Assembly: GCA_964630975.1 (NCBI GenBank)
Contig: CAZVVY010000004.1
Coordinates: 37,912-101,911 of the forward strand
Direction of reading: 5' to 3'
Source of the DNA: Candidatus Micrarchaeota archaeon
Lineage (GTDB): Archaea; Micrarchaeota; Micrarchaeia; Norongarragalinales; Norongarragalinaceae
Length of the DNA: 64,000 nt
This document shows positions 6,120 through 60,667 of the stretch, in pieces. Under the pieces are notes generated by a model. That model did no database searches. It had not been told where the DNA came from and saw only the letters and a list, made by a program, of their open reading frames with translations. A program made the position numbers and the translations under genes. Numbering within the stretch: position 1 is the stretch's first letter; each line of letters begins with the position of its first letter.

Positions 6120-6407
6120 ATGGTTAAGTACGCTATAGCAAAACAACTCGCAGGAAAGAAGATTATTACTACGGACGGTGAAGAACTCGGCCGGGTAATC
6201 GACTTGTACTTCGATGAGAGAAGCGGCCGCCTCGAAAAAGTAATCATCGAGCCCAACCCCGAATCGTCGCTCGCCGAAAAAGCGGGGCATGAAGCAGGGG
6301 GATACATAACCATCCCGTATTCGGCGGTTCTCGACGTAAAAGACGTGATGGTCGTCGACAGGCGCGCCCTCGCCGGAAACGCCCCTTCACACGTTTTCAA
6401 CGCGTAA
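6120..6407 (+). CDS. PRC-barrel domain protein
   Basis: 95 aa. LAGKKIITTDGEELGRVIDLYFDERSGRLEKVII...IPYSAVLDVKDVMVV is the typical PRC-barrel pattern. Confidence 0.7.
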   Translation: MVKYAIAKQLAGKKIITTDGEELGRVIDLYFDERSGRLEKVIIEPNPESSLAEKAGHEAGGYITIPYSAVLDVKDVMVVDRRALAGNAPSHVFNA

Positions 6408-7385
6408 GAGTGGACCTTCCCGAATTATTTTCGCGCCCAACTTTTTTCGGGCTTCCCCGATTTTTCCTTTTCTAACTAATTCCAGCGCTTGGTCCACTAG
6501 GAACGCGTTGGCCGAAAGCCAATCACCCGCCTCGCGCGCCGCCCCCTCTTTTTCCCGGAAGTCCTTTATCGCCGCCAAGCGCTGTTCACGGACGAAGTCG
6601 CGTTTAGGCTCCGCAGCCGAAGGCGAAACGAAAGAATAGTATTCCTGCAAGGCCGCACTCAACGAATCGAATTCCTTGAATTCCTTGCCCCCCATTTTCT
6701 TCAAGGGAAACGGCGAGAAGGCAACCGGCTTTCCTTCCTCAAAATAAACGACGGGCCTCGCTTCCGAGAACAAGGACAATGCGGCTTCCCGGATTGCCCC
6801 CGCCTTTTCAGCATCCAACTCCTCCTTGAATCCGACTCCGGCGCGCGCGCAGGCTTCCTCCAAGTAAAAAGGGGGCAACTCCAATGATTTGGATAGGGCG
6901 GGTACGGCCTTGCCGGTTGAAGGGAATCCGGCGGTTCGCGGGTCCTCCTTGGGCGAAGGGGGAGGCGAATAAGTTTCGCCCGGCTTCAAGGTGCGCGCCG
7001 AAAACTCTTCGAACTTGAAGGGGCGGATTATCCTTCCTCCCTCCAACAACAAAAGGTTTCCCTTGGAAAACAATTCGAACACCAGCGACTTATCGCCGAA
7101 GCCGACGCGCAACAAGCGATCGAACCCGATTTGGGTTACCGAGGAAACTCGTTTGCCCCTCAAATGTTTTCTCAACAGCATTGCGAACTGTGAAGGGCTT
7201 TTCGGGGCCGGCTTGCGCTCGCCCAAAAAAGCGTGTTCGCCGAGGCGCACTACCAAGTCCTTTTTGCCGAACCTGAAACGAAAATCCTTTTCGCCGCACT
7301 GGTATGCGTTGTCCAAGCGCGCCCCCTCCAAGGAGGCGAGCTCGCGCGACAAAAAGAATACGTCGAGGTTCCCCGTTTCCTGCAT
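6387..7385 (-). CDS. NFACT-N (FbpA/Rqc2/NEMF N-terminal) domain protein; N-terminal half of a split Rqc2 homologue
   Basis: The ORF track gives 6387..7418. I prefer ATG at 7385 (MQETGNLDVFFLSRELASLEGARLDNAYQ...). FELFSKGNLLLL and the following helical region match the NFACT-N plus first coiled-coil helix. The protein ends without an NFACT-R domain. Confidence 0.75.
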   Translation of the reverse strand: MQETGNLDVFFLSRELASLEGARLDNAYQCGEKDFRFRFGKKDLVVRLGEHAFLGERKPAPKSPSQFAMLLRKHLRGKRVSSVTQIGFDRLLRVGFGDKSLVFELFSKGNLLLLEGGRIIRPFKFEEFSARTLKPGETYSPPPSPKEDPRTAGFPSTGKAVPALSKSLELPPFYLEEACARAGVGFKEELDAEKAGAIREAALSLFSEARPVVYFEEGKPVAFSPFPLKKMGGKEFKEFDSLSAALQEYYSFVSPSAAEPKRDFVREQRLAAIKDFREKEGAAREAGDWLSANAFLVDQALELVRKGKIGEARKKLGAKIIREGPLLRVENV

Positions 7386-7447
7386 GGAAGTAGTTGGTCG
7401 AAACGCGAATAATAACATATTTATATCTCTTCCGATATAACTCGTTT

Positions 7448-13612: not shown

Positions 13613-14836
13613 ATGGGGTTCCTGGAAAAGTGCAAGCAAACCGGTGAAGAGATACTCGAATTCGGCGACGTTCTCGTAGTCCACCATTACGATTGCGACG
13701 GCCTCGCCGCGGCAGCAATAATTTGCAGTGCGGCGGACACCCGAAAAACGGTTTCCGCCAAGAAAATCGATGGCGGGCTCGTGAAAAAAATAAATTCAAT
13801 TGAAAAGGATTGCACGGTTTTCGCCGACATCGGTTCAAGCCAACGCATCCTCCTCGAAGAAAAAGCCGAAGGTGACTTGTTCTTCATAGACCACCACCCG
13901 CCGAAAAAAAAAGGGGGAAACCAAGCCAACGTGCACGACTACGGCTTCGACGGGTCGACCGACGCCTGCGGCGCGTCCACCGCCTACCACTGCTTCAAGC
14001 ACACGGGCAAGGACTTGGGTCGGCTCGGCATAACCGGCGCGGTAGGAGACATGCAAGCCCCGTTCACCGGCTTCAACAAGGTAATGCTCAACGAATGCGT
14101 TGCTCGCGGCGAAGTCCTGGTAGTGCCCGGGCTCGTAGTCCCGGGAAGAATAACCAAGCCAATGGGGAAACTCCTTGAAAGCGTTCCCGAAGGCTTCGAC
14201 TCTTCAAAACACTATTACGACTTGAACGCAAAGAATAGAATGCGGCTCGACGCCGAATTAAGGAAAACAATGAGCGAAAAAAGTTTCGGGGACGCCTACG
14301 TCTTCCCGAACCAGCCCGGCCGCGAGGAAACCAGGGACGCCCACGAGCTATCCGCCCTGTTGAACGCCTGCGGAAGAAGCGGCCACTCAAAAAAAGGGAT
14401 TGAAGCCGCGATAAGCGGCGGCGAACGACTGGCCGAAGCAAGGCGGCTAACCAGCGAACACGAAGAGCGGCTCGACGAACTGACTCGAAACGCGCAAAAA
14501 GTGGATTTGGGCGCCTTCGATTACTACGACGGACGCGGAAAAGCGGGGGCAACCGAGGTAGGCGTAATAACTTCGCGGCTCGTCGGCTCAAAACCCGTCA
14601 TAGGTTTTGCCCGAGAAGAAAACGGAGTGAAGGTTTCGGCGCGCGGCACGCCCGAACTAGTTGAAAAAGGGTTGGACCTCGGCGAAACAATGCGAAAAGC
14701 CGCGGAAGCGGCGGGAGGAACCGGCGGCGGCCACAACGTCGCGGCCGGCGCCGGCTTCCCGAAAGGAGGAGAGGCGCGTTTCCTGAAAAAAGCAAGAGAA
14801 GTAATAGAAATCCAGCTAGAGCTACGCAAAGTCTGA
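13613..14836 (+). CDS. DHH/DHHA1 phosphoesterase, archaeal RecJ/GAN (Cdc45-like) family
   Basis: 407 aa. Motif I VVHHYDCDG, motif III DHH in FFIDHHPP, DHHA1 motif GGGHNVAAGAGF. Confidence 0.8.
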   Translation: MGFLEKCKQTGEEILEFGDVLVVHHYDCDGLAAAAIICSAADTRKTVSAKKIDGGLVKKINSIEKDCTVFADIGSSQRILLEEKAEGDLFFIDHHPPKKKGGNQANVHDYGFDGSTDACGASTAYHCFKHTGKDLGRLGITGAVGDMQAPFTGFNKVMLNECVARGEVLVVPGLVVPGRITKPMGKLLESVPEGFDSSKHYYDLNAKNRMRLDAELRKTMSEKSFGDAYVFPNQPGREETRDAHELSALLNACGRSGHSKKGIEAAISGGERLAEARRLTSEHEERLDELTRNAQKVDLGAFDYYDGRGKAGATEVGVITSRLVGSKPVIGFAREENGVKVSARGTPELVEKGLDLGETMRKAAEAAGGTGGGHNVAAGAGFPKGGEARFLKKAREVIEIQLELRKV

Positions 14837-15034
14837 AGCCGCAAGCAACACGTCTTCCCGCGTCAACTCGCGCCGGCCCGCGTGCCGCGCGTAAATCTTG
14901 GCCCTGAACACCAAGTCCTCGGCCGAATCCTGCAACAACTCTGCCAGCTTCTCGCTTGCCGACTCGGCCACGCGCTGGGCCCCGGTCTCCCTGAAAAAAG
15001 AGTCCACGTCGAACAAGTCAAACGCTTTTTTCAC
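14822..15034 (-). CDS. Archaeal histone (histone-fold protein)
   Basis: The track ORF begins at ATG 15100. GTG at 15034 gives a 70-aa protein: KKAFDLFDVDSFFRETGAQRVAESASEKLAELLQDSAEDLVFRAKIYARHAGRRELTREDVLLA. It matches the GAERVS...A.HAGRKT..EDI.LA histone-fold pattern. Confidence 0.8.
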   Translation of the reverse strand: MKKAFDLFDVDSFFRETGAQRVAESASEKLAELLQDSAEDLVFRAKIYARHAGRRELTREDVLLAASDFA

Positions 15035-15159
15035 GCGCGACCCTCCACCAGCGCCTGACTCACCGAATCCGTGCTGACTAAGACTCGTTCTCCCACGCAC
15101 GAAACCTTGTAAGCCGTGCGCGAACCCTCCAATTCCTCAATCAATTCCCTTACCGTCAT
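15031..15159 (-). CDS. Possible 42-aa micro-ORF between the AAA+ gene and the histone gene
   Basis: Own translation: MTVRELIEELEGSRTAYKVSCVGERVLVSTDSVSQALVEGRA. The ATG lies 12 nt after the upstream stop, and its TGA overlaps the histone GTG (GTGA). Confidence 0.3.
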   Translation of the reverse strand: MTVRELIEELEGSRTAYKVSCVGERVLVSTDSVSQALVEGRA

Positions 15160-15170
15160 TCAAACCACCT

Positions 15171-16301
15171 CTAATGCATCGTGAAAAGGTTCCTAACCTT
15201 CTTGTTCAAAGAATACTCGTTGCGTTTCCTGCCGCCGACTTTTTTCGCCTTCACCGAAACCAACGGAAAAGGCACTTCGGGCTTCCTCTTTTTTTCCGCG
15301 GAGTCGCTGCCCCTCAACTGGTACAGTGCGTTGAACGCGGTATTTTGTGAAAGGCCGGTTGCCTTCCGGATTTCCTTCAGCGTCAAGGAATCGGCGCCCA
15401 ACAAGCACTCCATAACGTTTTGTTGGGACGGGCTCAACTGGTTCCACCACGAAACGTTGCCCTTCGTAATCCTGTCGCGCCGAATAACGCTTTGGACTAT
15501 CGGGTTGTCGGCGTATTCGGACGCCGCCTTCCAATCACTCTTCCCCATTGCAAGCGATGCAAGGAAAGAGTTAAGCTCGTCGAAAACGTAACGCGGAGAC
15601 AACAGGTTTTGCTCGGTCAACACCTCTTCAAGAAAAACGTCGGGAAAAGGGTTCAATCCCTTTCCTCCAACCGCGCTTATCCTATGAGAAATTATTTTCA
15701 ACATTTCTTCCTTCGAAAACTTTTTGCGCGTGAAAATGTTAGGCTCCCCTATCAAGTGCACCAACGAATCCGGGAAGTCGTCGCGGCCAAGCGCGGAAAC
15801 GACGAGGCGCAAGTTGGGGACGTCGTCCAACAAATACTTGAACTCCATGTACATCCCGCGGTTCTCTTCGAGGTGGGCTTCATCTACGAACAAGGCAACC
15901 TTCTTCTTTTTCGCCCTCAACTTCTTGACGAGGTTTTCACGGGAAACCTTTTTCGCGGGCCTTCCGAGCAACGAGTCGAGGAATCCGCGTTCCTCTCCGA
16001 ACAGCCGGTTGTGCAAGCCGTCCAAGGTCTGCGGCGGCTCCTTGAAAACGTGGGACTCGAATTCCGAGGGAAGGGAATACTTAACGAAATAAAGGGCGGA
16101 AGTCTTACCCACGCCCTTCGGGCCGACGAGCAAACACGCTTTTGCATCAAAGGCAAGGCGCTCAAGAATTTTCTCGCCCTCCAACGGCAAATAATACTTC
16201 AAGAAGGATTCCTTGTCACTCACCCTCAAATCCTTTACAAACGGGTTTTCCCTCCAACCCAACTCCGATAAGAGACGCTGTCGTGCTTCAAAGACCTGCA
16301 T
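15171..16301 (-). CDS. AAA+ ATPase of the ORC/Cdc6-ExeA (AAA_22-like) type with C-terminal winged helix
   Basis: 376 aa. N-terminal LGWRENPF (ExeA-like), Walker A GPKGVGKTS, Walker B ALFVDEAH. The C-terminal LTLKEIRKATGLSQNTAFNALYQL is wHTH-like. Confidence 0.6.
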   Translation of the reverse strand: MQVFEARQRLLSELGWRENPFVKDLRVSDKESFLKYYLPLEGEKILERLAFDAKACLLVGPKGVGKTSALYFVKYSLPSEFESHVFKEPPQTLDGLHNRLFGEERGFLDSLLGRPAKKVSRENLVKKLRAKKKKVALFVDEAHLEENRGMYMEFKYLLDDVPNLRLVVSALGRDDFPDSLVHLIGEPNIFTRKKFSKEEMLKIISHRISAVGGKGLNPFPDVFLEEVLTEQNLLSPRYVFDELNSFLASLAMGKSDWKAASEYADNPIVQSVIRRDRITKGNVSWWNQLSPSQQNVMECLLGADSLTLKEIRKATGLSQNTAFNALYQLRGSDSAEKKRKPEVPFPLVSVKAKKVGGRKRNEYSLNKKVRNLFTMH

Positions 16302-16376
16302 GATAGTTCAACCCACGCGAAATACAACGAAGCAAACCTATAAAAGACTTATGCAATACTGGAAGCGCGCCATACA

Positions 16377-16435
16377 AGATAAATAAAAGACAAGTTCAAG
16401 ACCATAAATCACGTGTGAGAGATAAATAAAAGACA
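16377..16435. repeat. Two exact 16-bp direct repeats AGATAAATAAAAGACA (16377-16392 and 16420-16435) plus a related TATAAAAGAC at 16339-16348
   Basis: Read directly from the 189-bp A/T-rich divergent intergenic region between the AAA+ gene and nreA. Spacing is about 43 bp. Confidence 0.8.
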
Positions 16436-16490
16436 TATAAGATACTTATGAGGGACTAAGAGTTTAATTTTTGGTTGCACAACACAATTT

Positions 16491-17651
16491 ATGGTTTCCT
16501 GTAACGAGTGCAAGGGCCGGTTGCTGTGCGGGCTCAAAAAATGCCCTTTGTTGGAGCGCCTGAACGCAAAACGCGAAAACAAGCCCAGAAAAGAAGTCGT
16601 AGGCGAAAGCCCCCCAAACGTGTTCGTCGGGTGGAGAGGATACCCCTTCGTCAACGTCGGGCCCAGCGTCAGTATGGAGGGCGCGGCAACCGACGCCTCG
16701 CAATGGTACGGCTTGCCTCTCGAAGAAATAGTTTCACGTGCTTCCGGAATGGCACGGGGCTTCAAGAAGCACGGCGTGAAAAAGAGGTTGGCCCGGGAAT
16801 TGTTGGAAGCCGGCCTCAGCGCTAAAGGAGTAGACATGGCGGTAACGTTCGAGAAAACGCCGAGGCAAGACGTGCGCTTCTTCGACGTGAGCCAGCCGGG
16901 AGGCCCTTCAGGAAAAGCGAAGGCAATAGAAGTACAAGGCAACGCGCGCATACCTTGCCTGGTGGATGAAGCGGTCGACGACGGGTGGACGGCGAAGGAA
17001 GCATTAGCAGAATTAATGCACAAGGATTACGACTATTATTACTTGCAAAAAGTGTTGACTTCCGGCGCCCTCGGCCAACACTCCAAGAAGCGTCTCGTCC
17101 CAACCCGGTGGGCTATTACGGCGACGGACACCATTCTCGCCGACGAACACTTGAAGCGAGTACGCCAAAGCGAAACCATTGCCTGCTACCAGGTTTACTC
17201 GAACGAATACTTGTCAAACCGCTTCGAAATAATTTTGTTGCCCGGAAACTGGGAATACGAACAATTCGAGGCGTGGTCACCCCGCAGCTTTTGGGGCCGA
17301 GGCGAAGCAAACGTTTCCCAGGAATTCGAGCCCTACCGGGGGAGAAAGGATTACGCGAAAAGCCAGGGCGGCGGTTATTACGCGGCGCGCTTCGCGGTAG
17401 CCGAAGCAATGGCGAAAAGAAACGTGCAGGCCCGCGCCCTGGTAATACGCGAGATTTACGACGGCTACCGCGTTCCGGTAGGAGTGTGGCAAGTGCGCGA
17501 AAACGCGCGCGCCGCCTTGTCTTCAAAACCCAATGAGTTCAACTCCCTTGAAGAAGCGGTTGGCGACGCGTCCTCTCGCCTTAAAAACCGTTGGGGGGCG
17601 TATTGCTCGCGAAGCACGCTGCTCCGCCAAAAAAAGTTGTGGGACTACTAG
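16491..17651 (+). CDS. nreA: Archaeal Nre-family DNA repair protein
   Basis: 386 aa. N-terminal Cys motif CNECKGRLLCGLKKCP, then LVPTRWAITATD, GGGYYAARFAV and RVPVGVWQVRE blocks as remembered for the Nre family (DUF650/DUF651). Confidence 0.75.
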   Translation: MVSCNECKGRLLCGLKKCPLLERLNAKRENKPRKEVVGESPPNVFVGWRGYPFVNVGPSVSMEGAATDASQWYGLPLEEIVSRASGMARGFKKHGVKKRLARELLEAGLSAKGVDMAVTFEKTPRQDVRFFDVSQPGGPSGKAKAIEVQGNARIPCLVDEAVDDGWTAKEALAELMHKDYDYYYLQKVLTSGALGQHSKKRLVPTRWAITATDTILADEHLKRVRQSETIACYQVYSNEYLSNRFEIILLPGNWEYEQFEAWSPRSFWGRGEANVSQEFEPYRGRKDYAKSQGGGYYAARFAVAEAMAKRNVQARALVIREIYDGYRVPVGVWQVRENARAALSSKPNEFNSLEEAVGDASSRLKNRWGAYCSRSTLLRQKKLWDY

Positions 17652-18421
17652 ATTTTTTCGTATTCCGTTCCCGCTTCCTCCAACAACGAGAGAAGGCGGG
17701 TCTTTTCGCCGCCGCACCCTTTCTTGTCTACGAAGGCTTTTTTGACGGGTGCTCCCGCTTTTTGGGTTGCCTGCTTCAAGGTTTTCCCGCTCAAGAATCG
17801 CAGCGCATACTTCGGACAAATGTGCGAGAAAAGGACGTTCTTTTCGAGTTCGGAGAACTTCGGGCAATAATGACCTCCGCCGAATCCGAGAACGCATTCT
17901 TTTGCCTTCGATGCCTCGCACGCCTTCAAACACGCGCGGGCAACCGCTTGACACGCCGCGTCATCACCCCATTGCTCCGGGGAGCTGCCGACTTCCACGA
18001 ACAAGACGGGGCAACTCAAGGAAGTGGGGCCGTGGTGCGTCGCCTCCAAGAAAACCGGGAAGCCCGGCGCGGGCTCGGACAAAAGAAAGTCGTAAGCCGC
18101 CTTCAACGCGCCCGGCGCCGCGAACGACAACTCTTTTTCCGATCCGCCGTGTTGGCCGGGCCCCCAGTTGCCCGTGAAGTGCGCGGTCAAGCACGGTTTT
18201 TCGGAGGCGCTGGAATGCTTGGAAGCGAACACGAGCAAGTCGGTTTCGAGCCGCGTCGAAAAATCAATTGTTTCCTCCCCCGTTTCAACCAGAAATACCC
18301 CACCGCGCTTCCAACAAGGCAAGCCGGCCAACGGCTCGCGCTCATTGAAGCCGTTTTCCTTGAACCATTCGGCCATCCGCGTTCCCGCGGGGTCGCGGGC
18401 CGAGTAAGCAATCGTCGGCAT
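17648..18421 (-). CDS. dtdA: D-aminoacyl-tRNA deacylase, archaeal type (DtdA)
   Basis: The track ORF starts at 18445. ATG at 18421 gives MPTIAYSARDPAG.... LVFASKHSS, LTAHFTGNW, EATHHGP and FVEVGSS are typical DtdA blocks. Confidence 0.8.
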   Translation of the reverse strand: MPTIAYSARDPAGTRMAEWFKENGFNEREPLAGLPCWKRGGVFLVETGEETIDFSTRLETDLLVFASKHSSASEKPCLTAHFTGNWGPGQHGGSEKELSFAAPGALKAAYDFLLSEPAPGFPVFLEATHHGPTSLSCPVLFVEVGSSPEQWGDDAACQAVARACLKACEASKAKECVLGFGGGHYCPKFSELEKNVLFSHICPKYALRFLSGKTLKQATQKAGAPVKKAFVDKKGCGGEKTRLLSLLEEAGTEYEKI

Positions 18422-18456
18422 AACGCAAATTAACGCGTTCGGCATTAAACTGCATT

Positions 18457-19203
18457 ATGCGAATCGACGAAGACCGCTTCGACCGCCAAAAACGCATCAG
18501 TGGCTGGAACCAAAACGAGGTATCCAAGTCGAAGTGCCTGATAGTCGGCGCGGGCGCCCTCGGAAACGAAGTCATAAAGCTGCTCGTGCAAATGGGCGTG
18601 CGCGACTTGACGCTGGTGGACTACGACTCCATAATAGAAGCCAACCTCAACCGATGCGTTTTCTTCAACTCTTCGGACGTCGGAAAATTGAAGGCCGAAG
18701 TGCTCGCCGAAAAAGTCAAGGTAATGGATGAAAACGCGCGCGTCAACACCGCGATAAAACGCCTTGAATTCTTGGACGAAACTTTTTACGACCGGTTCGA
18801 CTACGCTTTTTCGTGCCTCGACAACCAGGCGGCGCGCCTCCACTTGAACGCGTATTGTTACGGCCGGTTGCCCTTGGTCGATGGGGGAACCGCGGGCTTC
18901 AACGGAAAAGTACAAGTCGTGCGCTCGCCGTCGGCGTGCCTGGAATGCGCGATGAGCAAGGCGGATTACAAGAGAATGTGGAAGAAGTATTCGTGCGTGG
19001 GCGACGTCCTCGACTTTTTGGACCCGAAAATGCCGGCGCTCGCCACCACCACTTCAATCGTCGCGGCCATGCAAGCCAACGAATTCGTGAAAATGGTTCA
19101 CGGCCGCGGCTGCCTCGCCGGAAAATACGTTTTCTTCGACGGATTGAAGCAGGAAACCACTGTTTACGAAATCAAAAAGAGAAACAATTGCCCGGTGCAC
19201 TAA
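18457..19203 (+). CDS. Minimal E1-like ubiquitin-activating enzyme (ThiF/MoeB/UBA adenylation domain)
   Basis: 248 aa. RFDRQKRISGW, nucleotide loop LIVGAGALGNEVIKLLVQMGVRDLTLVDYDSIIEANLNRC, CxxC pairs (CLEC, and a C-terminal NCPV region), Cys-containing crossover region KKYSCVGD. Confidence 0.85.
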   Translation: MRIDEDRFDRQKRISGWNQNEVSKSKCLIVGAGALGNEVIKLLVQMGVRDLTLVDYDSIIEANLNRCVFFNSSDVGKLKAEVLAEKVKVMDENARVNTAIKRLEFLDETFYDRFDYAFSCLDNQAARLHLNAYCYGRLPLVDGGTAGFNGKVQVVRSPSACLECAMSKADYKRMWKKYSCVGDVLDFLDPKMPALATTTSIVAAMQANEFVKMVHGRGCLAGKYVFFDGLKQETTVYEIKKRNNCPVH

Positions 19204-19922
19204 TCGAAGGCGTCGCGGATGGAGCGCACCGCGGCCTCGCTCTCCTTGTCCAAGTACAACTCGAGCTTGCGGCCGCAACGCACGCAACGCTTGTCGCCCG
19301 CCATAATCGCCTCGTAACAATCCTTGTGGTAGGCCGCCCCGCAAAAGCAGTGGCCGTACTTCGCGCCCGCCTTGTTGGAAACGGATAAAGAAAACGGGCC
19401 CTTACACAACTCGCATTTTTCCTTTGGCTCCGGTTCGTCGGCTTGCTTCGGGGGCCAAGGCGCTTTCTCGATTTTCGTTTCTTGTTTTTGCTCCTTCATT
19501 CGGCGGCTCGCGTTCTTCAATATTTCCGCCAAATCGATTGCATTCGAAGGTGGTGATTCGTCCCGCTTTTCGGCGGGGGCGGGAGACGGCTTTTCGCGTG
19601 CGGGCTCCGGCTCTTTTTCTTCGGGTTGGCGCGCGGATTCAAGGAGTTTCCCCGCTTGTTCCTTCAGCGTCTTGGCTTCGCGGCGCTTCGCCGCTTCCTC
19701 CAGCTTCTTCACCTTGTTGTAGCCTTGGACGCCCAGCGCGAGTTGTTCGCCTTCGAACACCACGTAATTCTTGGCTTTAAGCTTCTTGGCGCGCTTTTCG
19801 AACTCGCTTTCCGCGATTCGCGTCTTCGCCAACAACTCTTTCTTGGTGGCGGGCCCGTCCGACAAATAGAACAACACGTCCTTGTCGAACTTCGTCAATC
19901 GAAAACGCTTTTTCTTGGTCAC
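19200..19922 (-). CDS. RING/PHD-like (C4HC3) zinc-finger protein, candidate E3 ligase, with N-terminal wHTH-like domain and acidic disordered linker
   Basis: C-terminal CELC-x18-CFC-x4-H-x2-C-x10-CVRC (eight ligands, cross-brace spacing). The GTG start at 19922 overlaps the JAMM gene TGA (GTGA); the track start is 19955. N-terminal FDKDVLFYLSDGPATKKELLAKTRIAESEFEKRAKKLKAKNYV resembles a winged helix. Confidence 0.75.
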   Translation of the reverse strand: MTKKKRFRLTKFDKDVLFYLSDGPATKKELLAKTRIAESEFEKRAKKLKAKNYVVFEGEQLALGVQGYNKVKKLEEAAKRREAKTLKEQAGKLLESARQPEEKEPEPAREKPSPAPAEKRDESPPSNAIDLAEILKNASRRMKEQKQETKIEKAPWPPKQADEPEPKEKCELCKGPFSLSVSNKAGAKYGHCFCGAAYHKDCYEAIMAGDKRCVRCGRKLELYLDKESEAAVRSIRDAFD

Positions 19923-20359
19923 TTCTTTTTCACCAACGCGAAAGGCACGGAACAATACTTTTCTCCTTCCACCTTAAACAGTTTTTCTTCGCCGCGCAAC
20001 GGGTCGATTACCAGCGCCAAGTGGTATGTCTCGTCGAAAAAAGAGTTGTGGGCCGCCAAGTCTTGCGAAGACATGAAAGAGCCGTAACCGGGGTGGGAGT
20101 GCGCCCAAACCACGAACGGCTTACCCGAATACTTTTCCGCTATTTCCTTGAAAGCCTCGCGGGCAAAGCGCGTGTGTAAAGCGGAAGAATCGTTTTCAGC
20201 GGTTACGTATTCTTCGGCAACCAAGTACTCCTTGCCCTGAAAAGAGTAAACCCTTCCGGCGAACAATCCTATTGCTTCCACTCCGCGCTCGGCGGCCTCC
20301 TTGAAGTGCTCCCGCGCCCCCTCAAAAGCTTCCGAAAAAAAGTATGCTGCGTAAAACAT
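19919..20359 (-). CDS. JAMM/MPN+ metalloprotease (Rpn11/JAB1-like deubiquitinase)
   Basis: 146 aa. Complete JAMM motif: E (VEAIGLF) ... HSHPGYGSFMSSQD (HxHx7Sx2D). ATG at 20359, one codon inside the track start. Confidence 0.9.
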   Translation of the reverse strand: MFYAAYFFSEAFEGAREHFKEAAERGVEAIGLFAGRVYSFQGKEYLVAEEYVTAENDSSALHTRFAREAFKEIAEKYSGKPFVVWAHSHPGYGSFMSSQDLAAHNSFFDETYHLALVIDPLRGEEKLFKVEGEKYCSVPFALVKKK

Positions 20360-20362
20360 CAA

Positions 20363-21232
20363 TTAATTGAAGCCGAGCTTCTTTTTTATGGGTTCCAAAA
20401 GCTTGGAGAAAAAGCCGGGCTTCGTATTTTTTTGCTGGTGTAGCGCTATTGCGCGCTGCACTTGTTCGTCCTTGGACAACTGCCTTGGCGCGGGTTTGTT
20501 TTCAACCGGAGTAACATCTTTTTTCGCCTGGTCGGGGCCGCCCGGAAAACTTCGTTCGCGGGCCCTTGAATGAAACTGCATATAACGCGGCGTCGACTCG
20601 TCGAAATCCTTTTTTTCGTCGGAAATCAGTTCTTGTGCTTCCTTGTCCGACTCCTGCAACTCCTTCAAGTCCTCGGGGGGCTTGACTTCCGTCATTCCAT
20701 CCGATTCCTGCACGGGAGCTGTTGACTTCGGTTCGGTTTCCGCGGGGGGCTCTTGAACTGGCGCGGCCGGCTGCACTTCCCGCACCGGCTCGATTGGCGC
20801 GGGTCGTTCGACTTGTTCTTCGACCGGTTGTTCGGGTCGAGGTGCCGGTTCAACGGCTTGTTCGGTTGGTTGAGCCCGCTCCGATTCGATTGCGGGCCGA
20901 ACCTTTTCCGCCTCCTCTTCCGGCAACTGCTCTTGCGGAGGCGCTTGTTCTTCCCGGGCCTTCGGCTCAACGTGTTGCGGCGGCGCGGGTAAATCCTCGT
21001 GCTCGTTTTTGACGCCTTCAACGTTTATTCCCGGCAAATCCGAGAAGTCCTCGACCGACGGTTCTTGCGCGGGCCCGGGTTTTTCGGCAGTCCGCTGTTT
21101 TTCTTCGGCCGGTGCTTCGGAAGGCCCGCCGTCTCCCTCGCTTTCCGGGGGATTGAGAGCCTGTATGCCGTCGCCTTCGACTACGTTCGTGCCGACGGGC
21201 GGCTTCGGCTCTTTTTCATCGTCTTCAGCCAT
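20363..21232 (-). CDS. Acidic Pro/Glu/Gln-rich intrinsically disordered protein with C-terminal amphipathic helix; first gene of the JAMM-RING operon
   Basis: ATG at 21232 (MAEDDEKEPKPP...) is preferred over the track start 21304. 289 aa of low-complexity EP/PQ/PA repeats. Only the C-terminus is ordered-looking (QRAIALHQQKNTKPGFFSKLLEPIKKKLGFN). Confidence 0.6.
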   Translation of the reverse strand: MAEDDEKEPKPPVGTNVVEGDGIQALNPPESEGDGGPSEAPAEEKQRTAEKPGPAQEPSVEDFSDLPGINVEGVKNEHEDLPAPPQHVEPKAREEQAPPQEQLPEEEAEKVRPAIESERAQPTEQAVEPAPRPEQPVEEQVERPAPIEPVREVQPAAPVQEPPAETEPKSTAPVQESDGMTEVKPPEDLKELQESDKEAQELISDEKKDFDESTPRYMQFHSRARERSFPGGPDQAKKDVTPVENKPAPRQLSKDEQVQRAIALHQQKNTKPGFFSKLLEPIKKKLGFN

Positions 21233-21269
21233 GACAAGGAATATTAATCGTTCAAACGTATAAAAACGT
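21233..21269. promoter_or_regulatory. 37-bp bidirectional promoter region with two opposed TATA-like boxes
   Basis: gacaaggAATATTAAtcgttcaaacgTATAAAAAcgt. AATATTAA is centred about 27 nt before the Ubl ATG (21270). TTTTTATA (minus strand) is centred about 30 nt before the minus-strand ATG (21232). This implies leaderless mRNAs on both sides. Confidence 0.5.
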
Positions 21270-21512
21270 ATGAGTGAATTCAACATCAAGGTAACCCAGA
21301 CCACGTCAGGAAAGGAAATAGTTTTGGCGGTGGAAGAGGATTACACGGTTTCCTCGGTGCTCGAAGTTCTCGCTGAAAACCTTCACTTGAAGGACCGCTT
21401 CGTACTCGCAACCAAAGACAACAAGATTCTCGACCCCGACGTAACGCTCGGCGAAGCAGAAATAAAGGAGAACACCGAGTTGCTCCTCATCCCCGACCCC
21501 ACGGGTGGCTGA
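21270..21512 (+). CDS. Ubiquitin-like beta-grasp protein ending in Gly-Gly
   Basis: 80 aa: MSEFNIKVTQTTSGKEIVLAVEEDYTVSSVLEVLAENLHLKDRFVLATKDNKILDPDVTLGEAEIKENTELLLIPDPTGG-stop. The alternating beta/alpha pattern and ubiquitin-like length fit, and the free C-terminal GG is encoded directly before the stop. The E2 ATG follows immediately. Confidence 0.8.
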   Translation: MSEFNIKVTQTTSGKEIVLAVEEDYTVSSVLEVLAENLHLKDRFVLATKDNKILDPDVTLGEAEIKENTELLLIPDPTGG

Positions 21513-21962
21513 ATGCTTCCCCCGAAGATTTGGAAGCGCCGCCTCGAAAACGAGTACAGGCAGTTAAAGGAAACCCCCCTCAAATTCGAGGTCAACACGG
21601 ATTACACCGAATACGTCTTGAGCTTGAACGGCCCGGGCCTCTACCGCGAAGGCGAACGCGTAATTGAAAGAAACAAGCACGCCGTCAAAATAGAGTTGAA
21701 CCGCAACTACCCTTACCCCGGCGGAATAGAAATCACGTGGCTCACCCCCATATTCCACCCAAACATACGCGAAGACGGCAAGGTATGCATCCAACTCGTC
21801 AACGACTGGGCCGAAAACCAAACGGTTTCCAACGTTGTCAGCGCACTACACTACTTACTCGAAAACCCCAACCCCTCCGACCCCTTGAACAAGGAAGCCG
21901 CCGCGTACTTCGAAGGGAAAACGCAAGCGCCGAAAAAGCCGCGCATAGTTGAAGGATTATGA
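21513..21962 (+). CDS. E2 ubiquitin-conjugating enzyme (UBC fold)
   Basis: 149 aa. N-terminal helix KRRLENEYRQLKE, then ITWLTPIFHPNIREDGKVCIQLVNDW (HPN triad, catalytic Cys, downstream Trp), and NPNPSDPLNKEAA (UBC C-terminal helices). Confidence 0.9.
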   Translation: MLPPKIWKRRLENEYRQLKETPLKFEVNTDYTEYVLSLNGPGLYREGERVIERNKHAVKIELNRNYPYPGGIEITWLTPIFHPNIREDGKVCIQLVNDWAENQTVSNVVSALHYLLENPNPSDPLNKEAAAYFEGKTQAPKKPRIVEGL

Positions 21963-22084
21963 AGCGCCCGCGAATCGTATCCATAACCGAGCCGGCAAGG
22001 GAAGAGCGCGCGCCGCCATCCGAACAAGAATTCGAGTTCGTGGAAAAGCACGAAGTCAAATCCGCCAAAACTTCCTCGTCTTAA
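21959..22084 (+). CDS. Possible 41-aa micro-ORF translationally coupled (ATGA) to the E2 gene
   Basis: Own translation: MKRPRIVSITEPAREERAPPSEQEFEFVEKHEVKSAKTSSS. Its ATG overlaps the E2 TGA. It overlaps the lhr 3' end by 29 nt. Confidence 0.25.
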   Translation: MKRPRIVSITEPAREERAPPSEQEFEFVEKHEVKSAKTSSS

Positions 22085-24683
22085 TGAACGTCTTCTGAGC
22101 ATCCAATAAGTCGAAGAAAAAATCTTCCTCATTAGAATGCATTCTACCCAGCACCCGCGCCGCCGTGTCCGGGCCAACGCCGTAAGTTGCCAAAGCCAGT
22201 AAGGCGCGCGACCCGTACTCGCTAACCAAGTTGGCTACTAGCTCCGCCTGCTCCACTTCCTTCCGCGGCTTCCCCTTCTCCCACGCCTCCCCGAATTTCT
22301 TCAACGTCAAGCGCTTTGACTTACAAAAAGGGCAACGCGGCTCGTCCGGCGCTTCATACAAAGAAACGGCGTGCGTCTTCCCGCAAAACGTGCAATACAC
22401 TCCCTGCTTCTTCTCAAACAACTTGTGCTTGAACGACTCCAACACTTCGGGGCCCGCCGTAGGCGCGACCAGTTCGCCGAAAGCGCCGAACCCGAAAAAC
22501 TTTTTGGACAACGGCGATTGCTTGCCCGAATAAACGCGGACCCGCGAAGAATCCAACAAGTTGATTGCGCGACCCGCGTCCAGGAAGCCGTGCTTTATTT
22601 CATTCAAAGTTTCGACTCCGGCAGGCGAATCCCTCAACGCGGCCGCCAGCCGCTTGACCGAAAAATGCGAGAGCTCCGCCTTCTTTGAAATGATGCCGAA
22701 CGCCTTGGCAACGCCGATGAACCTCTTGCGGTAAAGCGCCGTGTTCACGAGGGCCGCATTCAATACTCGCTCGGCAGAAGACGCATTCAAGGCGCGAAGC
22801 GATTCGGCTACTTTTTCGGCACATATTTTCCGCGCTTCAACCAAAACACCGTAAGCCCGCGGCTTCAACCTCATCCCGCCGCGCACGTCGACTACCGCGC
22901 CTATCACGCGGGCCAGCGCCTCGTTCGCCTTCAAACCCCAGAACGAGTGAACGACCACCCAATCCCCGCCTTGTTCAACGACCAACCCGCCGGGCTTGAA
23001 ACACGCCAACTGCTTTTTCACAAACGAGTCCCGCGACTCGGAAGAAAACTCTTCTTCAACCGCGGAAGCGACTTCAAAAGACACGGGCAGCTCTTCACCC
23101 ACCCACTCCGGAATGGCGGCGGTCAAGTCGCTTGCCGGCTCCACCACGACCTCTTCCTCGTTAACGCTCAACACGCGCCACGCCTTGCCCCGCGTAACGA
23201 AAGTCGCGCCCTCCCCCAAATACTCGAAAACGAAGGACTCGTCAAGAAGGCCTACCGCGCGCCTTGTCGCGGCGTTCCTCACCCACAACTTCTTGAGGTC
23301 GCGAATCGTACTCAAATTTTCGTAATAATACAGTTTGGTGCGCGCCCGCTTCGAAACCGTTTTCCCGTCGAAGTCAACGCATTTCGCCGAAGCGGACTGC
23401 TCTGCAACGCCCCGCAACTCTTCAAGCGACAAGTCGAAAACCGAACACGAATTCAAGACCTTCAACGCGACCCCCAAATCGATTCTGTCGAAGTCCAGTG
23501 CCAGGCCCGCGAGCTGGTGAGCCGCAACGTCCAACGGGTTCGAGCGCAAGAACAACGGCTCCAAATCGTTCTTCAACGCCTTCTTTTTGATTACGCGCGC
23601 CTCCAAAAAATCGAGTTCGTCATTGCAAACCACGACCCCTTTAGGAACCAAGTCGCGCCTGTGCCCGCTGCGGCCCACGCGCTGCAGCAAGCGCGCCACC
23701 CGCCTCGGAGAACCGAACTGAATCACCAAGTCAATCGCGCCAATGTCTATGCCGAGCTCGAGCGACGAAGTGCACACGACCGCCTTCAACCCGGAGGCAT
23801 CCTTCTTGAACTCCTTCTCGGTTTCCACCCGCGCGTCCCGTGAAAGCGAGGAATGGTGTACCGCAACCTTTTTTCCAACGCGCGTCTGCGACAACAAAGA
23901 TCCCAACGATTCGGCGAGGTAACGCGTGTTAACGAACACCAACGACCTCTTATGCGACTCAATTAAATCCGTTATGACGGACAAGCGCGCCCTCGACTCC
24001 TCGCCCAAGCCAACACCCTTCAACGCTTTGCCGCCCTTCCTCGGAAAAACCACGTTTACTTCCGGCTTCCTCGAAAAGGATTGCTCGACAACGCGGCACG
24101 AAGGAGACAAGAATTCCGCGACTTCACTGCGGTTCCCCACGGTTGCACTAAGCCCCACCACCTGAAAGCGCGGCGACTTCAACCGCAGGCGTGCGAGCCC
24201 TGCCGCCAGCTGCAGGCCGCGCTTGCTTTCAACCAGCTCGTGCACTTCGTCCACGCACACGAAGCGAACGTTTGAAAGAGAATCCTTCAACTTTGGGGCA
24301 ATCAACACGGCCTGCAAGGTCTCCGGAGTCGTAACCAATACATTCGGGGGAAAGTCGCGCTGTCGCGTCCTCTCGGACGAAGGCGTATCCCCGTGGCGCA
24401 CTCCCACGCGCAACCCAAGCAAACGGCACCAGAAAGAAAGGCGGTCAAGCATGTCGCGATTCAATGCAGTCAACGGCGTAATATACAAGAGTTGAATTCC
24501 TTCTTTCTCACCCTCCTCATGCAACTCGAGCAAGCGCGACAAAATCGGGAGCACCGCGGCCTCGGTCTTGCCGAACCCCGTAGGAGCAATCAACAAGACG
24601 TCGCGCCCCTCTAAAATCAAGGGAAACGCCTTCTGCTGAATAGACGTGAATTCATTGAAGCCCTTGGCTTTCACGAGGTCCAT
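22056..24683 (-). CDS. lhr: Lhr-type ATP-dependent DEAD/DEAH-box helicase with C-terminal zinc ribbon
   Basis: The track ORF reaches 24872, but its first 63 codons run through poly-A/T DNA (FFLFFF). ATG at 24683 gives MDLVKAKGFNEFTSIQQKAFPLILEGRDVLLIAPTGFGKTEAA (Q motif, Walker A). It also has DEVHEL, SAT and HHSSLS motifs and CTFC...CPFC near the C-terminus. Confidence 0.85.
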   Translation of the reverse strand: MDLVKAKGFNEFTSIQQKAFPLILEGRDVLLIAPTGFGKTEAAVLPILSRLLELHEEGEKEGIQLLYITPLTALNRDMLDRLSFWCRLLGLRVGVRHGDTPSSERTRQRDFPPNVLVTTPETLQAVLIAPKLKDSLSNVRFVCVDEVHELVESKRGLQLAAGLARLRLKSPRFQVVGLSATVGNRSEVAEFLSPSCRVVEQSFSRKPEVNVVFPRKGGKALKGVGLGEESRARLSVITDLIESHKRSLVFVNTRYLAESLGSLLSQTRVGKKVAVHHSSLSRDARVETEKEFKKDASGLKAVVCTSSLELGIDIGAIDLVIQFGSPRRVARLLQRVGRSGHRRDLVPKGVVVCNDELDFLEARVIKKKALKNDLEPLFLRSNPLDVAAHQLAGLALDFDRIDLGVALKVLNSCSVFDLSLEELRGVAEQSASAKCVDFDGKTVSKRARTKLYYYENLSTIRDLKKLWVRNAATRRAVGLLDESFVFEYLGEGATFVTRGKAWRVLSVNEEEVVVEPASDLTAAIPEWVGEELPVSFEVASAVEEEFSSESRDSFVKKQLACFKPGGLVVEQGGDWVVVHSFWGLKANEALARVIGAVVDVRGGMRLKPRAYGVLVEARKICAEKVAESLRALNASSAERVLNAALVNTALYRKRFIGVAKAFGIISKKAELSHFSVKRLAAALRDSPAGVETLNEIKHGFLDAGRAINLLDSSRVRVYSGKQSPLSKKFFGFGAFGELVAPTAGPEVLESFKHKLFEKKQGVYCTFCGKTHAVSLYEAPDEPRCPFCKSKRLTLKKFGEAWEKGKPRKEVEQAELVANLVSEYGSRALLALATYGVGPDTAARVLGRMHSNEEDFFFDLLDAQKTFIKTRKFWRI

Positions 24684-25066
24684 TAATTCGCGTCTCAACA
24701 CGCGAAGTATTGCACGCCCCCTAAATTTAACGATACCACTAGCGGTATACCGCCAAAAGCGCGTCCCAAGAAAAGTAAAGAAAAAAAGAAAGAAAACACG
24801 AAAACAAAAAACGACGTAAAAGCGCGGTTTAAACCTCGAATTCGGCGTTTTCGAGTTTTCGGAGGCGAGCAACCCTTTTTAAACCTTTTTATTCTTTACC
24901 GGGTAGAAAAAACACTAACCACGTAAAAACAAGGGACAAATTTGCAAAAACAGGCAGTTTTTTCACTAAAACGAAATTTTATCAAATTTTTCTTTCATAA
25001 ATCCACGACACCTCCGGTTTTCAGGAATTTTTCGAATGAAACACCGAGAATCCGAAGAAAAACGCT

Positions 25067-35538: not shown

Positions 35539-35692
35539 GGGCCCATAGCTCAGTTTGGCCAGAGCACTCGGCTCTTAACCGAGGCGTCGAGGGTTCGAAC
35601 GAACCCTTTTCTTTGTAAAGAAAAGTGTTTCATCCCAAAAGAAACTCTTTTCAACGAAAAAGAGAAGGGTTGTGAAAATCCCTCTGGGCCCG
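35539..35692 (+). tRNA. tRNA-Lys (CUU) interrupted by a ~79-nt intron inside the T-loop (about position 59/60; intron about 35600-35678)
   Basis: Exon 1: GGGCCCATAGCTCAGTTTGGCCAGAGCACTCGGCTCTTAACCGAGGCGTCGAGGGTTCGAA. Exon 2: TCCCTCTGGGCCCG. Joined, they give a perfect 75-nt cloverleaf (acceptor GGGCCCA/TGGGCCC, T arm GAGGG-TTCGAAT-CCCTC, anticodon loop CTCTTAA). The junction is ambiguous by 1-2 A residues. Confidence 0.85.
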
Positions 35693-36682: not shown

Positions 36683-36753
36683 GCAGGGCTGACAGAGCGG
36701 CTATGTGCCCGCCTGCAGAGCGGGTCAGGGGGGTTCGACTCCCTCGCCCTGCT
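36683..36753 (+). tRNA. tRNA-Cys (GCA)
   Basis: GCAGGGCTGACAGAGCGGCTATGTGCCCGCCTGCAGAGCGGGTCAGGGGGGTTCGACTCCCTCGCCCTGCT. Acceptor GCAGGGC/GCCCTGC, anticodon stem CCCGC/GCGGG, loop CTGCAGA, T loop TTCGACT, U73 discriminator typical of tRNA-Cys. The D stem is short (3 bp). Confidence 0.85.
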
Positions 36754-60237: not shown

Positions 60238-60630
60238 GTGAAGAACAAGACGATTACCGTGATAACGCGCGACCGCGCAGGCTTGTTATCGGAAGTCGCC
60301 GGAATCCTCGCCGAAAAAGGAGTCAACCTCGAATCGATTTCATTGAACACCAAGGCGCGCAAAGCCGTAATACACATCACGACTTCTTCCCTGCAACGCG
60401 CCAAGAAGGCGTTGCGCTCTAAAGGGTTCGAGCCGCTCGACGCCAACTTACTCGTGTTGACGCTTAAGGACAAGGCGGGCGAGCTCGCGCGCGCGGCAGC
60501 CTTACTCCAAGAAAAAGGAGTGCGCGTCAAGCGCCTCCACCTCGTTTCCAAGGGAAACGGCCGCGCAGTAACCGCTTTTGAAACCTCGGATAATCCGAGG
60601 GCGCGCCGAATCCTGCGGTCCTTCAACTAA
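60238..60630 (+). CDS. Tandem ACT-domain protein
   Basis: The track ORF (from 59878) is an R-rich over-extension antisense to nothing coding. GTG at 60238 gives VKNKTITVITRDRAGLLSEVAGILAEKGVNLESISL... and a second LTLKDKAGELARAAALLQEKGVRV unit. Confidence 0.75.
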   Translation: MKNKTITVITRDRAGLLSEVAGILAEKGVNLESISLNTKARKAVIHITTSSLQRAKKALRSKGFEPLDANLLVLTLKDKAGELARAAALLQEKGVRVKRLHLVSKGNGRAVTAFETSDNPRARRILRSFN

Positions 60631-60667
60631 ACTCTTTTTAGTCCGCCGGTTCAACAACCTTGTGAAT

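Follow-up and report, generated by a model that had tools for sequence, protein, structure and literature searches.

A 64,000-nucleotide stretch of a Candidatus Micrarchaeota contig (CAZVVY010000004.1; the whole stretch is referred to here as the window, and positions are counted from its first letter) carries, between positions 18457 and 22084, a compact cassette of seven genes that together resemble a ubiquitylation pathway. At its left end lies the gene for an activating enzyme, or E1 (18457-19203, plus strand), an open reading frame (ORF) of 248 amino acids. Three genes are read from the minus strand: a winged-helix/RING-like protein, which is the putative E3 of the cassette (19200-19955; 251 residues if translation begins at the TTG at 19955, 240 if it begins at the GTG at 19922), a JAMM protease (19919-20359; 146 residues from an ATG), and an acidic, intrinsically disordered protein (20363-21232; 289 residues from an ATG). 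Beyond a divergent intergenic spacer of about 35-37 nucleotides (21233-21269), the plus strand encodes a ubiquitin-like protein (Ubl; 21270-21512, 80 residues, with PDPTGG directly before the stop codon), a conjugating enzyme, or E2 (21513-21962, 149 residues), and a microprotein (21959-22084, an ORF of 41 residues), which is the seventh gene of the cassette.

The genes are tightly packed. The stop codon of the Ubl directly abuts the ATG of the E2 (ggc tga atg), the E2 stop and the microprotein start overlap in ATGA, and on the other strand the TAA that ends the disordered protein is followed at once by the start of the JAMM gene. With the GTG taken as the E3 start, the JAMM and E3 genes share the four letters GTGA (19922-19919), whereas gene callers favor the TTG at 19955. 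The E1 and E3 genes converge with a 4-nucleotide overlap at 19200-19203. The cassette therefore falls into three transcriptional parts: Ubl-E2-microprotein on the plus strand, a minus-strand operon of which the disordered protein is the first gene, followed by JAMM and E3, and a separate E1. Two TATA-like boxes can be read in the spacer, “aatattaat” at approximately 21243-21251 as a candidate for the Ubl operon and “tttttata” on the minus strand at approximately 21266-21259 as a candidate for the disordered-JAMM-E3 operon, and these could be the promoters of the two divergent operons. Both boxes stand about 25 nucleotides ahead of the respective start codon, a distance suggestive of leaderless transcripts. 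A promoter and terminator scan built for bacterial-type signals returned nothing usable from this archaeal host. The GC content of the cassette (0.55-0.56) is the same as that of its flanks.

The original prediction, made from the letters and their translations, had described five of these genes (E1, E2, RING-like protein, JAMM, and Ubl). All five are read as ORFs where it placed them, and the motifs it quoted, namely GAGALGN and NLNRC in the E1, FHPNIREDGKVCIQLVNDW in the E2, HSHPGYGSFMSSQD in the JAMM protein, and the eight-ligand RING-like motif, are letter-exact. The junctions that it reported (Ubl/E2 abutment, JAMM/RING GTGA, and 4-nucleotide E1/RING convergence) can likewise be read from the DNA. 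Its end coordinate, 22084, is the end of the 41-residue ORF, a gene that it did not describe.

Core enzymes and the ubiquitin-like modifier

Homologous loci were collected by scanning one genome per GTDB species, which gave 254 loci with a relative of the E2; of the best 80 of these 254, 54 are Micrarchaeota. Pfam scores, together with an identical gene order in approximately 45 independent genomes, place this gene set far beyond chance.

The E2 has HPN at residues 82-84, a predicted catalytic Cys92, the loop-4 pair P67/Y68, and a C-terminal “KKPRIV” tail. It matches Pfam UQ_con at 2.6e-19 (69.6 bits vs a cut-off of 27). With a profile built from 33 homologues, UBE2H and UBE2A are matched at about 3e-18, and Cys92 falls on their catalytic Cys; R64, P67, Y68, H82, P83, N84, C92, and W99 are invariant in these 33 sequences. 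On these alignments, the 149-residue protein is securely assigned as a UBC-fold E2 with its Cys at the catalytic position, as had been proposed. Mutation of the P67/Y68 loop-4 pair abolished E3-dependent ubiquitylation in Caldiarchaeum (PMC5654768).

The E1 matches Pfam ThiF at 4.6e-49, and its best matches among solved structures are the active adenylation domains of eukaryotic Uba1 (4.8e-29), followed by UBA3 and UBA2, and then by ThiF (1.6e-18) and MoeB (3e-17), which bears out its earlier description as a ThiF/UBA-type enzyme. The label “eukaryote-type” given to the whole cassette is nevertheless an overstatement for this protein, as it is a single ThiF-fold adenylation domain lacking both a separate catalytic-Cys domain and a ubiquitin-fold domain (UFD). 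Where eukaryotic E1s insert their catalytic-Cys domain, the blocks aligned with Uba1 are separated by only 36 residues, and the chain stops at residue 248, directly after the CxxH of its zinc site (C161-x2-C164 ... C245-x2-H248). Family members are approximately 244-289 residues long. Across 41 Micrarchaeota and 20 Thermoplasmata sequences, the invariant positions include the Arg finger R10, the GxGxxG loop (G31/G33/G36), D55, and D57, and in the same 61 sequences from two phyla also N63, R66, K79, D122, C161, C164, C180, C245, and H248. Cys180, which lies in the crossover loop, is the obvious candidate for the thioester Cys of this E1; we take it to occupy the position of C184 in ThiF and C187 in MoeB.

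The size and architecture of this E1, its zinc site, and its crossover-loop Cys are those of ThiF, MoeB, and UbaA, and invite the question of whether the main task of the E1 and the Ubl is to carry sulfur for tRNA thiolation or cofactor synthesis, as pairs of the SAMP/Urm1/MoaD/ThiS type do, with conjugation as a side activity. Family-level scores speak against this, as the E1 falls far under every relevant NCBIfam cut-off (UbaA, 85 bits vs 450; MoeB, 92 vs 266; ThiF, 103 vs 275), has no rhodanese domain, and is closer to eukaryotic E1s. The flanks of the cassette hold no genes for thiolation or cofactor synthesis, and within it the pair is joined, at one conserved place, to a JAMM protease, a RING-like protein, and an E2 of canonical UBC type.

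The properties of the Ubl bear on the same question. Its AlphaFold2 model (predicted local distance difference test, pLDDT, 83) has the beta-beta-alpha-beta-beta topology of a beta-grasp, and most of its 50 highest Foldseek matches are ubiquitin, SUMO and NEDD8 being listed too, at template-modeling (TM) scores of 0.78-0.86 (0.82-0.86 for the best ubiquitin matches) and with 27-29% identity to ubiquitin. Sequence models yield only sub-threshold matches to the ubiquitin family. In the profile alignment, G14-K15 falls on ubiquitin G10-K11, R43 on R42, and V45 on I44, with the terminal GG in the same register, while T12, K15, K41, D42, R43, and the PDPTGG tail (P75-G80) are invariant in 44 sequences. 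The earlier reading of an 80-residue beta-grasp modifier is thus supported by a model that superposes on ubiquitin and by an ORF that terminates after PDPTGG. The sulfur-carrier reading can draw here on weak matches to ThiS (0.035) and SAMP1 (0.11; 13 bits vs a cut-off of 60), but structurally the protein is closest to ubiquitin, SUMO, and NEDD8 rather than to MoaD or ThiS, and on balance we consider that reading improbable.

In 38 of 48 Micrarchaeota copies of the Ubl the ORF stops exactly at GG, so that the protein is made mature, and the others carry from one to approximately 26 extra residues. The Ubl is also the most conserved of the five proteins compared, with a median identity to the window copy of 0.69, against 0.58 for the E1, 0.52 for the E2, 0.41 for the JAMM protein, and 0.32 for the E3. 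Counted from the sequence, it is strongly acidic, with approximately 16 Asp/Glu residues vs 7 Lys/Arg. The expected tryptic remnant on a substrate is the 14-residue ENTELLLIPDPTGG rather than diGly.

The JAMM protein narrowly misses the Pfam cut-offs (Prok-JAB 5e-5, 23.6 bits vs 25; JAB 0.0019, 18.4 vs 22.5). Its motif E29...H88-x-H90-x7-S98-x2-D101 is complete and is kept in 48 sequences, and the solved structures that it matches are Rpn11 (1.6e-4), CSN5, AMSH, and the Rpn11-like protein of Caldiarchaeum (6fjv, 2.2e-3). A complete, conserved active site and the Rpn11 and CSN5 matches agree with its identification as a JAMM protease. By its motif and relatives it would be an Rpn11-like, putative deconjugase, and also a processing enzyme where the Ubl bears a C-terminal extension.

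The winged-helix/RING-like protein

The putative E3 is built of a winged helix, a long helix, a disordered linker that contains a “DLxELLxKGxP” helix, and a C-terminal C4HC3 RING-like domain. None of its 113 homologues has a precomputed Pfam domain, and those that are named are nearly all “hypothetical protein” from Micrarchaeota. The winged helix and long helix (residues ~20-108; 19632-19898, minus strand) are modeled by AlphaFold2, from a 47-sequence alignment, at a pLDDT of approximately 94-97. Foldseek matches this part to DNA binders of the MarR/ArsR type, namely ZitR, SarZ, YodB, and Sso10a (TM 0.73 over all 90 Sso10a residues), and there is a weak Pfam match to MarR_2 at 0.0037.

The RING-like zinc domain (residues 181-227; 19275-19415, minus strand) has the spacing C181-x2-C184-x18-C203-x-C205-x4-H210-x2-C213-x10-C224-x2-C227. 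All eight Cys/His positions are invariant in 47 sequences whose mean column identity is 25%, and so is L183, a hydrophobic residue between the first and second ligands at an E2-contact-type position. Two Pfam models are touched by most of the family, Prok-RING_1 by 31 of 31 members (best 3.3e-4) and zf-RING_2 by 29 of 31 (best 4.4e-3). When a profile is run against the PDB, the RING-H2 domains of gp78/AMFR and Pirh2 come first, with E-values of 0.04-0.16, and hhalign assigns 82-85% to gp78/AMFR and Pirh2 against less than 1% to a PHD and a RINGv domain. Taken together, these alignments make RING homology of the C-terminal domain likely, with the cross-brace as its candidate fold.

A number of observations pull in the other direction. 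Every Pfam RING model remains sub-threshold for this domain (in the window protein, zf-RING_2 reaches 14.7 bits vs 27.3 and Prok-RING_1 14.0 vs 29.1), and the AlphaFold2 pLDDT over residues 180-230 is 44-68. The RING-H2 alignment spans ligands 3 to 8 only and finds an invariant Ala207 at the fourth-ligand position; for the site to be complete, Cys203, which precedes the aligned Cys205 by two residues, would have to take part. The spacing of four residues between ligands 4 and 5 lies outside what we take to be the canonical RING range. Note here that the small RING protein of Caldiarchaeum shows a similar two-residue displacement and an extra Cys (PMC5654768). For the binuclear cross-brace of the original prediction, the eight ligands are present as it gave them and are invariant in the 47 sequences; the fold itself is a candidate only, given a poor model and sub-threshold Pfam scores.

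Given that the only confidently modeled part of this protein is a MarR/Sso10a-like winged helix, could it be a DNA-binding regulator, for instance an autoregulator of the cassette, with a structural or sensing zinc module, while the E2 picks substrates by itself? The sub-threshold RING scores would fit such a role. So would the outcome of a profile search against 1.84 billion representative proteins, in which the zinc domain formed a closed family of 72 sequences and no bridge to canonical RINGs was found. Related cassettes in Thermoplasmata (described below), which have no RING-pattern ORF within 8 kb, would imply in addition that an E3 is not obligatory for the family. What the regulator reading leaves unexplained is the invariance of the eight-ligand pattern and of the hydrophobic residue between its first two ligands, the fact that RING E3s are the best matches in both Pfam and PDB (with the hhalign values given above), and the translational coupling of the E3 gene to the JAMM gene within the cassette in all species examined. 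The roles of regulator and E3 are, moreover, compatible with each other. We regard a protein that is a regulator and not an E3 as unlikely, and an E3 carrying a winged helix remains our preferred reading.

Two further observations concern this protein. A conserved helix (“DLxELLxKGxP”, residues ~141-155; 19490-19535, minus strand) stands within the otherwise variable linker and may be a partner-binding motif. An outlier in the zinc-domain search, P0389, was set aside as a repeat protein that has only “WHKDCY” in common with the family.

Accessory proteins and the KPRIV motif

The disordered protein has no Pfam match, and it is predicted as a 289-residue gene in public assemblies. Most Micrarchaeota loci have a gene at its position, encoding 72-440 residues of which approximately 50-65% are E, D, K, P, Q, A, or S. 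In the window, an acidic body ends in a basic amphipathic C-terminal tail (20363-20425, minus strand), KPGFFSKLLEPIKKKLGFN (GFFSKLLEPIKKKLGFN), and tails of the same character, such as KKKGFLQKLFGG and GFFGKLKATLGF, are nearly always present in other species, with a net charge of 0 to +6 that is positive in all but one.

The microprotein, MKRPRIVSITEPAREERAPPSEQEFEFVEKHEV..., has an N-terminal KPRIV and then a PPSE-x-EYEF motif within its 41 residues. It is predicted as a gene in public assemblies, and in 40 Micrarchaeota loci the E2 is followed by an ORF of 32-79 residues that has these motifs, usually no more than about 40 nucleotides from the E2 stop. The shared pattern is M-x-K-P-[KR]-[IV]-[IV]-x-[VI]-[KR]-E...E-E-[RK]-x-P-P-S-E-x-[ED]-[YF]-[ED]-F, and P4, P19, and P20 are invariant in the family alignment. 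The 41-residue ORF is a real gene. Several of the longer microproteins end in the same kind of basic amphipathic tail as the disordered protein.

The KPRIV motif, [KR]-P-[KR]-[IVL]-[IVL], recurs in three proteins of the cassette, with 0.006 occurrences expected per 40 residues. It forms the extreme C-terminus of the E2 in 42 of the 54 Micrarchaeota loci, and stands at the N-terminus of the microprotein in 40; in 23 of 34 species the disordered protein has it among its first 40 residues. The two copies in the window, in the E2 (21933-21950) and in the microprotein (21959-21979), are 27 nucleotides apart. Since the disordered protein and the microprotein share both KPRIV and the same type of tail, they look like versions of one design. 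A further KPRIV match, at the N-terminus of the SRP54 ORF (60578-61981), was rejected because it lies upstream of the SRP54_N start and probably belongs to a spurious 5' extension.

We infer from this distribution that KPRIV is a docking peptide for one common partner within the core set, which could be the E1, the Ubl, or the JAMM protein. These are more likely partners than the E3, as the E2s of Thermoplasmata, where no RING was detected, also end in similar tails (P[KR]VV or RIRIV). The motif may replace the E2-recruiting UFD that the E1 is without; another option is that it binds the acidic Ubl as a basic strand, much as a SUMO-interaction motif would. For the disordered protein, a weaker suggestion is that its basic amphipathic tail tethers it to the membrane.

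Certain facts weigh against this interpretation of the accessory proteins. The window's own disordered protein has no clear KPRIV. The tether is suggested by a resemblance of the tail to the membrane-targeting sequence of MinD, but the hydrophobic moment does not set the tail apart from background C-termini, and a MinD-like reference does no better by the same measure.

E2 homologues from one Bathyarchaeota locus and one Sigynarchaeum locus end differently, in the acidic-hydrophobic tails DEDEDDDILIID and EAENDDILVID, respectively. By sequence these look like SUMO-interaction-type motifs, opposite in charge to the basic KPRIV tails.

Distribution, proposed conjugation cycle, and relation to known systems

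Among homologues of the E2, E3, and Ubl with a named source, nearly all belong to Candidatus Micrarchaeota, Micrarchaeia, or Norongarragalinales, a group that NCBI taxonomy places in the phylum Microcaldota of the kingdom Nanobdellati, that is, among the DPANN archaea. The earlier suggestion of a reduced-genome archaeon outside Aigarchaeota and Asgard is thereby confirmed. Approximately 45 species-level genomes repeat the gene order of the window: Orc1/Cdc6-like, Nre, DtdA, E1, E3, JAMM, a variable gap, Ubl, E2, and Lhr. This fixed housekeeping place, together with the uniform GC content, rules out contamination, and the sharing of one chromosomal neighborhood by so many genomes indicates that the cassette is inherited and is not a defense island. 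The synteny argues for its presence in the common ancestor of these Micrarchaeota lineages, with vertical inheritance within Micrarchaeota as the best explanation.

The same synteny bears on whether the cassette could be an antivirus or conflict system similar to bacterial Bil or to the Cap2/Cap3 arm of CBASS (cyclic oligonucleotide-based antiphage signaling systems), which likewise join an E1, an E2, a JAB protease, and sometimes a Ubl. Instead of variable islands, this cassette occupies one fixed housekeeping locus across the phylum, and no defense genes were seen nearby. Against the PADLOC models, through which Bil, CBASS Cap2/Cap3, and 6A-MBL systems were considered, the E1 is matched in part by “E1-E2” (best 6.3e-16) and BilD (3.5e-7), but only over its generic nucleotide-binding portion; there is no PADLOC match for the E2, the Ubl, the disordered protein, or the microprotein, and the remainder amounts to JAB at 0.009 and a weak WH_III-A match of the E3 at 0.0017. 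The E2 is also a canonical HPN-Cys UBC protein, unlike the Bil or Cap2 type. We dropped the defense reading after the PADLOC scan and consider it very improbable.

Outside Micrarchaeota, related arrangements (loci L057-L079) come from Thermoplasmata and related euryarchaeotal metagenome-assembled genomes, mostly Methanomassiliicoccales, in which E1, Ubl, E2, and JAMM follow one another on one strand. No RING-pattern ORF was found within 8 kb of the E2 in these loci by regular expression, which leaves room for an E3 elsewhere or of another type, and the same expression gave no E3 candidate near the E2 in the Bathyarchaeota, Asgard, and bacterial loci. Three of the JAMM proteins in the Thermoplasmata loci are 583-827 residues long.

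How far was this system already visible? NCBI-sourced names label several Micrarchaeota homologues “ubiquitin-conjugating enzyme E2”, and the mere presence of an E2 could therefore be seen in databases. A search of the full-text literature, Micrarchaeota comparative genomics included and subscription-only papers outside its scope, found no account of ubiquitin cascades from Micrarchaeota, from DPANN archaea, or from Methanomassiliicoccales. The broadest survey found covers Aigarchaeota, Crenarchaeota, and one marine group II euryarchaeote (PMC4327156).

The flanks of the cassette in the window (13613-18445 and 22056-24872) hold a DHH/DHHA1 protein (RecJ/GAN-like), an Orc1/Cdc6-like AAA protein, Nre, and DtdA on one side and an Lhr helicase across the cassette on the other. 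Most of this replication/repair-type neighborhood is conserved with the cassette across the phylum. The neighborhood and the winged helix of the E3 hint at a role in chromatin or repair, although they may also reflect plain inherited gene order. Elsewhere in the window lie a Cdc48/VCP-type double AAA ATPase (42186-44306, plus strand) and an NFACT protein (NEMF/Rqc2-like; 6387-7418, minus strand); proteins of the Cdc48/VCP and NEMF/Rqc2 types are partners of ubiquitin pathways in eukaryotes. For a 747-residue ORF (57956-60199, plus strand), Pfam gives nothing at E <= 0.001. The tRNA finders disagree at two places: a partial tRNA at 35545-35609 (plus strand, 33 bits, model positions 7-64) is called by Rfam and missed by ARAGORN, and a tRNA-Cys at 36683-36753 (plus strand) is called by ARAGORN and absent from Rfam at its gathering score; these discordant calls may be atypical or intron-bearing archaeal tRNAs.

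We propose that the cassette carries out Ubl conjugation through E1 and E2 thioesters, with the JAMM protease as eraser, and put the probability of this at roughly 0.8, with less confidence in the part assigned to the E3. Read from the gene set, the catalytic residues, the Ubl fold, their conservation, and synteny, the cycle would begin with an 80-residue Ubl produced ready for use, its Gly-Gly end free. The E1, probably a homodimer like ThiF and MoeB, would adenylate Gly80 using ATP and then carry the Ubl as a thioester on the crossover-loop Cys180, from which it would be handed on to Cys92 of the E2. The RING-like domain of the E3 could then bind the E2 through contacts of its L183 with P67/Y68, stimulating discharge onto substrate lysines, while its N-terminal winged helix and coiled helix may target DNA, a DNA-bound protein, or another partner protein. 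The JAMM protease would strip the Ubl off again and, in a minority of species, trim short C-terminal extensions of the Ubl. The microprotein and the disordered protein could act as competitors, adaptors, or substrates by way of KPRIV. A point against this scheme is how an E1 without a UFD would recruit this E2.

A wider reading, which we consider less likely than not, would make Micrarchaeota and Thermoplasmata the holders of a separate, so far undescribed family of such systems, in which a KPRIV-type peptide replaces the UFD as docking code. The family would be marked by an IPDP-x-GG Ubl tail, a bare 250-residue E1, and a tailed UBC E2. In Micrarchaeota the additions would be the microprotein, a disordered protein tethered to the membrane, and a RING E3 that binds DNA through its winged helix, and these would carry or compete for the KPRIV-type code. 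If this is true, E2/RING ubiquitylation is either old and widespread in Archaea or has been exchanged between DPANN symbionts and their Thermoplasmata hosts. It would then not be an Aigarchaeota/Asgard prelude to eukaryotes, and even reduced genomes would retain it among their core functions.

Archaeal ubiquitylation by E1, E2, and RING proteins has been discussed as a trait of Aigarchaeota, of a few Crenarchaeota and Euryarchaeota, and of Asgard archaea, and that distribution has been used as evidence for archaeal roots of the eukaryotic ubiquitin system (PMC4327156; PMC5654768). A cassette fixed at one housekeeping locus across a small-genome DPANN phylum, with relatives in Thermoplasmata, changes the distribution behind those arguments, and its phylum-wide retention suggests a function that these organisms cannot do without. 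The combination of an E1 that has neither Cys domain nor UFD with a canonical E2 also makes the cassette a minimal model provided by nature, in which E1-to-E2 transfer without a UFD becomes testable with four small soluble proteins, and the KPRIV peptide and the unannotated microprotein offer concrete handles on it.

Among known systems, the operons of Caldiarchaeum and Asgard archaea (Nunoura 2011, PMC3082918; Hennell James 2017, PMC5654768; Fuchs 2018, PMC6043591) share with the window the clustering of five functions in one compact operon-like unit, a UBC E2 with HPN-Cys and the same loop-4 P67/Y68, a GG-ended modifier of ubiquitin fold, and an Rpn11-like JAMM protein encoded in the operon (the matched 6fjv). 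With Caldiarchaeum there is the further likeness of a RING-H2-related zinc finger whose third and fourth ligands are shifted from the consensus. The differences are considerable, however. The Caldiarchaeum E1 has catalytic-Cys and UBL/UFD domains, both of which the 248-residue E1 of the window lacks (PMC5654768). Its zinc protein is a small C3H2C3 finger, whereas the C4HC3 domain described here forms the C-terminal 50 residues of a 251-residue winged-helix fusion, and its Ubl is a pro-form with nine extra residues after TVGG, as opposed to a mature protein ending in PDPTGG. Two conserved genes, for the disordered protein and the KPRIV microprotein, are added in a DPANN host. The three differences listed in the original prediction (the large size of the winged-helix/RING protein, the additional disordered protein, and the Ubl being encoded mature) all hold against the Caldiarchaeum paper (PMC5654768). 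Because its E1 is without Cys and UBL domains and its E3 is not a small C3H2C3 finger, the cassette, though it would work in a like manner, is not a strict member of the Caldiarchaeum/Asgard type.

The Thermoplasmata cassettes are similar in their minimal E1 (approximately 254-277 residues, with the same invariant Cys/His set), in the IPDP-x-GG tail of the Ubl (IPDPEGG in their case), in the adjacent JAMM gene, and in the short hydrophobic C-terminal tail of the E2. They differ in their one-stranded order, in the RING pattern absent from the 8 kb around the E2, in an E2 that is only 30-39% identical to that of the window, and in the much greater length of several JAMM proteins. The SAMP/UbaA/HvJAMM1 and Urm1 systems also combine a minimal ThiF-type E1 bearing a crossover-loop Cys with a GG-ended beta-grasp protein and a JAMM deconjugase, but they lack both E2 and E3 and serve as sulfur carriers as well, whereas the window has a UBC E2, a RING-like protein, and a Ubl that resembles ubiquitin. 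A last parallel is offered by UBA5 and UFC1 of the UFM1 pathway, where a minimal E1 without Cys domain or UFD recruits its E2 by a short terminal peptide. This is an analogy that implies no homology, and the docking peptide is on the E1 in UBA5, while KPRIV belongs to the E2 and the two accessory proteins. Systems of this general kind are already established; of interest to a specialist here are the retention across a phylum of reduced genomes, the pairing of a bare E1 with a canonical E2, the winged-helix E3, the shared KPRIV motif, and the microprotein.

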